Source: Escherichia coli
GTDB taxonomy: Bacteria > Pseudomonadota > Gammaproteobacteria > Enterobacterales > Enterobacteriaceae
Reading direction: 5' to 3' (one strand)
Length of the DNA: 64,000 bases
NCBI RefSeq assembly: GCF_044324875.1
Contig: NZ_CP172185.1
Under the pieces are notes generated by a model that searched no databases, was not told the DNA's origin, and saw nothing but the letters and a program-made list of their open reading frames with translations. The stretch's first letter is position 1; every line of letters begins with the position of its first letter. A program made the translations under genes and the position numbers. This document shows positions 54,946-55,154 of the stretch, piece after piece.

Positions 54946-54956
54946 TTTCCCCGTAA

Positions 54957-54990
54957 AGCGGCAACTTTTTTGAGTTGCCGCTTTTTTATT
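54957..54990 (+). terminator. rho-independent terminator of pflA
   Basis: Hairpin gcggcaac-ttttttgag-ttgccgc followed by ttttttatt. Confidence 0.75.
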
Positions 54991-55154
54991 CCGCGCTGCA
55001 TAAATAATTCAGAGCTCTATTTCTAACGCCCTTACAGCACAGCTTCCAAATGTATTACCCAAACCGCCAGTATATGTCCTGCGGCTTGCGCGCATTTCTC
55101 GATTATGTAAAAACGGGTCAGATCTGCCAGAGTCAGCGTCACCGGCCACAATAA

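Follow-up and report, generated by a model that had tools for sequence, protein, structure and literature searches.

In E. coli K-12, the divergent genes ycaK (b0901, minus strand) and ycaN (b0900, plus strand) lie between pflA and ycaM, as seen in strain BW25113 (locus L002), where the stop codons of pflA and ycaM are 1,680 bp apart. K-12 YcaN matches Pfam PF00126 (HTH_1) and PF03466 (LysR_substrate), and YcaK matches Flavodoxin_2. In a K-12 ycaN knockout, ycaC was down and ycaD and focA were up, and the mutant had a negative formate-utilisation phenotype on a Biolog plate; a summary table gives ycaC and ycaD as DNA-binding-site targets of YcaN (PMC9068703). Other E. coli strains show two further arrangements. 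O157:H7 genomes carry a LysR pseudogene between pflA and ycaM, and in strains of the ST131/ATCC 25922 type pflA lies directly beside ycaD. The original prediction for the stretch of DNA described here was that ycaN and ycaK are missing between pflA and ycaM. The K-12 gene order that it gave is correct; the pair-bearing gap in K-12 is somewhat shorter than the approximately 1.8 kb that had been assumed.

The window, by which is meant the whole 64-kb stretch of DNA that was analysed, has the same locus, flanking genes and orientation as the K-12 pair, and the pieces it retains are in the same register. It differs from K-12 in lacking 1,476 bp, in a strongly diverged spacer and in the state of both genes, which would be non-functional. 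The left border is an intact pflA (pyruvate formate-lyase activating enzyme; 54205-54945, plus strand), which is 98-100% identical to K-12, is annotated by PGAP in the locally identical O169:H41 record and ends with its stop codon at 54943-54945. On the right is an intact ycaM (APC-family permease; 55155-56585, minus strand; Pfam AA_permease_2, E 2.6e-29), the stop codon of which occupies 55155-55157, and beyond it are ycaD (56795-57943, minus strand) and ycaC (58258-58884, plus strand). The interval between the two stop codons, 54946-55154, is exactly the 209 bp originally given. As also described before, it contains the intrinsic terminator of pflA (54955-54990, plus strand), in which a terminator scan finds a 13-bp stem with a 4-nt loop at 54955-54984 followed by a T-run, and which is conserved in K-12, ST131, E. 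albertii and other Escherichia sp. The pflA-ycaK intergenic spacer follows at 54988-55031; in a multiple alignment its first ~14 nt are K-12-like, while the remainder is strongly diverged and has the E. albertii version as its nearest relative. Next comes the end of ycaK (55032-55041, minus strand), consisting of the stop codon and 7 nt, TTACAGCACA (K-12 TTATAGTGCA), as placed by alignment with K-12, Escherichia sp. L006 and L007, and E. albertii. A deletion junction, here called J1, falls at 55041/55042 according to blastn, ungapped registers and the alignment, and the rest of the interval is a 113-nt ycaN pseudogene remnant (55042-55154, plus strand) made up of codons 267-302 and the stop codon. 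The 209-bp interval is thus very probably the scar of a 1,476-bp deletion that removed most of ycaK and ycaN.

The ycaN remnant was recognised by tblastn against the window, by alignment of homologues and by PGAP pseudogene annotation. Positions 55044-55151 translate to YcaN residues 267-302 with 35 of the 36 residues identical (E 2.3e-19), and the stop codon of the remnant abuts that of ycaM in convergent orientation, in the same register as K-12 L002 6001-6113. The piece aligns to the conserved C-terminal block FQ[IL]YYPNRQYMSCGLRAFLDYVK of YcaN homologues, which is shared by those of Pseudocitrobacter, Hafnia, Shimwellia, Serratia and others; this marks it as the truncated end of a genuine gene as opposed to a chance similarity. 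PGAP labels the same piece an N-terminally truncated LysR pseudogene in the O169:H41 strain, which is locally identical to the window, as well as in O157:H7 WS4202. Measured against a functional LysR gene, it has only 36 codons left, with no start codon, no HTH domain and no promoter, and the remnant alone gave no Pfam match; it is most likely non-functional. Together with the ycaK stop and its 7 nt, and with a mechanical 46-aa open reading frame on the minus strand (55009-55149) that nothing marks as a gene, the ycaN piece contradicts the original statement that the interval holds no ORF or gene remnant. For the 40 nt at 55002-55041, pairwise BLAST finds no counterpart in K-12, whether at this site or elsewhere in the region, and none in strain 06-00048 either; within E. 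coli their sequence is confined to genomes with J1. Foreign filler DNA was considered for these 40 nt and rejected, as a multiple alignment with four Escherichia loci identifies them as diverged pflA-ycaK spacer plus the end of ycaK.

The extent of the deletion follows from the comparison with K-12. By BLAST, window positions 54600-55001 correspond to L002 4088-4489 at 97.8% identity, and positions 55042-55500 to L002 6001-6459 at 95.4% identity, with the second match beginning within ycaN. What is missing relative to K-12 is L002 4525-6000, or 1,476 bp, and the lengths balance, because 1,680 - 1,476 + 5 = 209, the window spacer being 5 nt longer. J1 would have removed nearly all of ycaK, a flavodoxin-like NAD(P)H oxidoreductase (codons 1 to ~194), the divergent ycaK-ycaN promoter region, and codons 1-265 plus most of codon 266 of ycaN, a LysR-type regulator. 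What would remain is the pflA terminator with the pflA-ycaK spacer, 10 nt from the end of ycaK, and the final 36 codons of ycaN with their stop. The K-12 alignment that had been proposed as a check thus bears out the absence of the genes, but it also reveals that the ends of both were retained. In K-12, each breakpoint is followed by one copy of an imperfect direct repeat, TCTACCATATC and GCTTCCAGATC, with 8 of 11 positions matching, for which a chance match is possible (roughly 1-2% by personal estimate, allowing for choice of length and offset). J1 may have arisen by illegitimate recombination or slippage between these imperfect 11-nt copies; such a short-homology event fits the 8/11 repeat, which is suggestive.

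A 52-bp probe across the junction was compared with 5,426 complete E. coli genomes. J1 was found in 1,023 of them (~19%), always as a full-length match and in 947 cases at ≥99% identity, and many O157:H7 strains are among the carriers. A further 3,341 genomes (~62%) have the K-12 ycaK-ycaN segment, at 3,361 places, and 1,047, including ST131 and ATCC 25922, have a pflA-ycaD junction without ycaK, ycaN and ycaM, so that these three allele classes total 5,411 of the 5,426 genomes. All 60 of the K-12-segment matches that were sampled belong to non-O157:H7 records, and 58 have standard ycaN and ycaK annotation; of the other two, one has IS1 insertions in ycaN (EC96) and one contains just 92 bp of the segment. 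In WS4202 and numerous other O157:H7 genomes, the colinear site has this junction and lacks the K-12 DNA. The concept of 'K-islands', K-12 segments absent from O157:H7, reportedly goes back to Perna et al. 2001, and the ycaK-ycaN segment, present in K-12 and absent from O157:H7 at the colinear site, is by definition what we take to be such an island. J1 is accordingly an ordinary gene-content difference that already has an annotation in over a thousand public genomes, and a long-known difference between K-12 and O157:H7.

Between the window and O157:H7 WS4202, the junction and the pseudogene annotation are the same, and within the scar (54946-55154) just 2 of 209 nt differ; so close a match indicates that J1 arose once within E. 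coli. From that origin J1 would have been passed on by inheritance or spread by recombination. The flanks are not the same in the two strains. The 3' third of ycaM in the window (55155-55630) is ~4% diverged from both K-12 and O157:H7, unlike the remainder of ycaM and the scar, which are 98-99% identical. The O169:H41 strain Res13-Lact-PER13-34, which is identical to the window at the junction and different elsewhere, has exactly the same diverged patch, and the stretch looks like a small patch of recombination. Over its first 25 kb, the window is 98.0% identical to the best-matching complete genome.

Several E. coli genomes depart from J1 in other ways. The ST131/ATCC 25922 type resembles the window in having lost ycaK and ycaN at the same locus while keeping the pflA terminator, but its deletion is larger and independent and also removes ycaM. 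In strain CUPS04 the loss is IS1-mediated and ycaM is truncated too. Strain 06-00048 (L004 1-6990) has, in place of pflA-ycaK-ycaN, a low-GC, AT-rich island with bcsA-like, GGDEF and EAL genes, which adjoins a divergent ycaM of 89.5% identity. This arrangement was considered as a precursor of J1 and rejected, there being no trace of ycaN or ycaK in it. In strain E69 (L022), the 6 kb downstream of ycaM contain neither pflA nor a ycaN remnant, and its arrangement may be similar to that of 06-00048.

The direction of the change was read from the flanks of YcaM relatives, taking one genome per species. Every recovered Escherichia lineage with pflA in reach beyond ycaM has either the intact ycaK-ycaN pair or a 3' remnant of ycaN. 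As in the window, the scars of E. albertii and of Escherichia sp. L005-L008 have the ycaN remnant set against the ycaM stop codon, but the breakpoints of several differ. In L006 and L007, 16 nt of the ycaK 3' end (the stop codon and ~4 codons) are joined to approximately ycaN codon 270, and in L005 the ycaK stop is joined to ycaN codon 250. The junction of E. albertii is of the type found in the window and its spacer is the same variant, with ~73% identity across spacer and junction (own count from the alignment) and frameshifts in its copy of the remnant. At least five different loss junctions were seen within Escherichia. Because the remnants end at differing junctions, the ancestor must have had the intact pair, which was then lost several times, and the pflA-ycaD interval is one that loses genes repeatedly in this genus. 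The original description of a clean, lineage-specific deletion therefore holds only as to deletion. It is not clean, since remnants of both genes flank the junction, and it is not lineage-specific, since the junction is common to the 1,023 genomes, O157:H7 included, and E. albertii has a homologous scar.

Outside Escherichia, pflA adjoins ycaM in Citrobacter, Salmonella arizonae/diarizonae, Kluyvera, Yokenella and Pluralibacter, with gaps of ~45-160 bp in about half of the loci examined and 0.7-5 kb in the others, and none of these loci has a YcaN or YcaK match at E ≤ 1e-2. These genera, and the patchy spread of YcaN homologues across Enterobacterales, give some support to the idea that the lineage of the window never had the pair between pflA and ycaM and that K-12 gained it by insertion, and for greater evolutionary depth there is a grain of truth in the ancestral state that the original prediction had offered as its second option. 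As an account of the allele in the window, however, it is refuted by the remnants. The window keeps 36 in-frame ycaN codons with their stop, as well as the ycaK stop and 7 nt, and the full-length YcaN family has a conserved C-terminal block to which this in-frame 3' end corresponds. All sampled ycaM-bearing Escherichia lineages have the pair or a remnant of it. Moreover, Pseudocitrobacter corydidari has a ycaK-like/ycaN-like pair between pflA and ycaD (YcaN 79% identical), and the enterobacterial contig L052 has the order pflA-ycaK-ycaN-ycaM at ~77% nucleotide identity to K-12; Hafnia alvei has a ycaK-ycaN pair at another locus. The remnants in the window and the pair at the same locus in Pseudocitrobacter and L052 make the state of the window a secondary loss, and this is so regardless of whether Escherichia acquired the pair or Citrobacter, Salmonella and Kluyvera lost it. 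Nor is it likely that the genes have merely moved. Neither ycaK nor ycaN is intact anywhere in the 64-kb window by tblastn, with no YcaK match better than E = 3.7 and no YcaN match beyond the remnant. In the genome collection, the 3,361 places of the K-12 segment fall in 3,341 genomes and the total of the three classes does not exceed the number of genomes, giving no hint of genomes with a scar plus a relocated copy; this argues against relocation across the collection, and intact copies elsewhere in the source genome are very unlikely. A mis-assembled or collapsed region that dropped both genes is hardly conceivable, and is refuted by the occurrence of the identical junction in 1,023 independently finished genomes. 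Finally, the remnant might have been kept for a function, either to encode a small protein, for which a 34-aa ORF might start at an ATG at 55050, or as the 3' UTR of ycaM. At codon 269 the window has ATG where K-12 has ATC, and the terminator scan found no terminator of its own for ycaM ahead of the scar, both of which would suit such a role. Against this, scans found no Shine-Dalgarno sequence or plus-strand promoter, and an Rfam scan of 54000-57000 left the interval empty, its sole match being a sub-threshold STnc100 at 54039-54086. Frameshifts and substitutions of the kind expected in decaying genes are present in the remnants of E. albertii, L006 and L007, and a recent common origin already predicts high conservation within E. 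coli. Retention for function is accordingly very improbable, and the secondary loss of ycaK and ycaN through J1 remains the preferred reading.

The age of the scar is less straightforward, as its two sides are unequally diverged. Left of J1, the spacer and the end of ycaK are ~30% diverged from K-12 over ~25 nt and are E. albertii-like, whereas right of J1 the ycaN remnant differs from K-12 at 4 of 113 nt. A simple deletion that took place recently and in situ on a K-12-like allele is not enough to account for this contrast, for which either the allele must be old, with recombination reaching as far as the junction, or it must have been imported from a divergent lineage. The window-type spacer is in no intact E. 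coli genome among the 5,426 searched, and the direct precursor allele of J1 has thus not been observed. Recent introgression from E. albertii was examined and ruled out, as identity to that species is 78-91% per 300-bp window from pflA rightwards (54400 onwards); it reaches 97% only in a partial chunk made up of the pflB-pflA spacer and the start of pflA. We lean slightly towards shared ancestry of the left part of the scar with E. albertii. One history that would accommodate this is a trans-species polymorphism, in which J1 scar and intact allele have both persisted, the scar being present by descent in E. albertii and about one fifth of E. coli while its flanks were homogenised by recombination; this is doubtful and is put forward tentatively. 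Alternatively, the scars of E. coli and E. albertii could have formed independently at the same short repeat, with the E. coli allele being young and of origin within E. coli, which is a real possibility, albeit one that we would not expect to hold. Loss is recurrent in Escherichia, the breakpoints have their imperfect direct repeat, and the closeness of the ycaN remnant to K-12 would be expected of a young allele; in addition, our own reading of the alignment also allows the E. albertii junction to be placed ~8-10 nt upstream, given a secondary loss of 8 nt. Independent formation is harder to reconcile with what the window and E. albertii have in common and K-12, L005, L006 and L007 do not have, namely the spacer motif AAATAATTCAG, the absence of a TCTGC(ATG) block that K-12, L006 and L007 have kept, the GCACA variant of the ycaK end and an equal junction length. 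The confinement of the spacer type to genomes without the intact pair also tells against it.

For E. coli, these results make ycaK and ycaN accessory genes, present in ~62% of complete genomes, and the findings on YcaN regulation in K-12 are for this reason not transferable to strains of the O157:H7 or ST131 type. Carriers of J1 would be without YcaN-dependent control of the neighbouring ycaC, ycaD and focA, and without YcaK, and ST131-type strains would likewise be without the YcaN regulator and the YcaK oxidoreductase. The reading of the interval is corrected to a pseudogene scar in place of an empty spacer, which has little import beyond bookkeeping, and the three-state locus (intact, J1 scar or pflA-ycaD) would serve as a simple lineage marker. 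Should the trans-species polymorphism be true, the pflA-ycaD interval would be a hotspot of recurrent loss, with its minimum of five junctions in Escherichia, the YcaN/YcaK module would be conditionally advantageous, and ~40% of E. coli would run ycaC, ycaD and focA without YcaN control.

Elsewhere in the window are two IS200-like elements of 718 nt, 100% identical to each other and in inverted orientation (16629-17346 and 23755-24472), which encode a Y1 transposase (Pfam PF01797, E 1.7e-37). Each is inserted right after the T-run of a terminator-like GC-rich hairpin, and the pair brackets a 6.4-kb segment from ompF to ldtD. The junction of the ST131-type deletion (L003 8280-8310) consists of a T-run, GTGCACAGAAAA and the ycaD-ycaM spacer; the 12 nt of GTGCACAGAAAA exactly match the left end of the IS200-like element in the window (16635-16646), and CAGAAAA is common to this junction and the spacer upstream of ycaM (window ~56745). 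Such similarity suggests that the larger deletion of the ST131 type may be IS200-associated, leaving a 5-nt scar. The O169:H41 strain lacks both IS200-like elements and has, unlike the window, an IS1397 between ssuB and pepN. The window starts within an elf (ycbQRST-type) fimbrial operon (1-6291), and the O169:H41 strain (L049) is without that operon. In the latter, the ComEC-family gene ycaI has an internal stop and carries a pseudogene annotation (L049 38702-40966, at approximately the same coordinates in the window).
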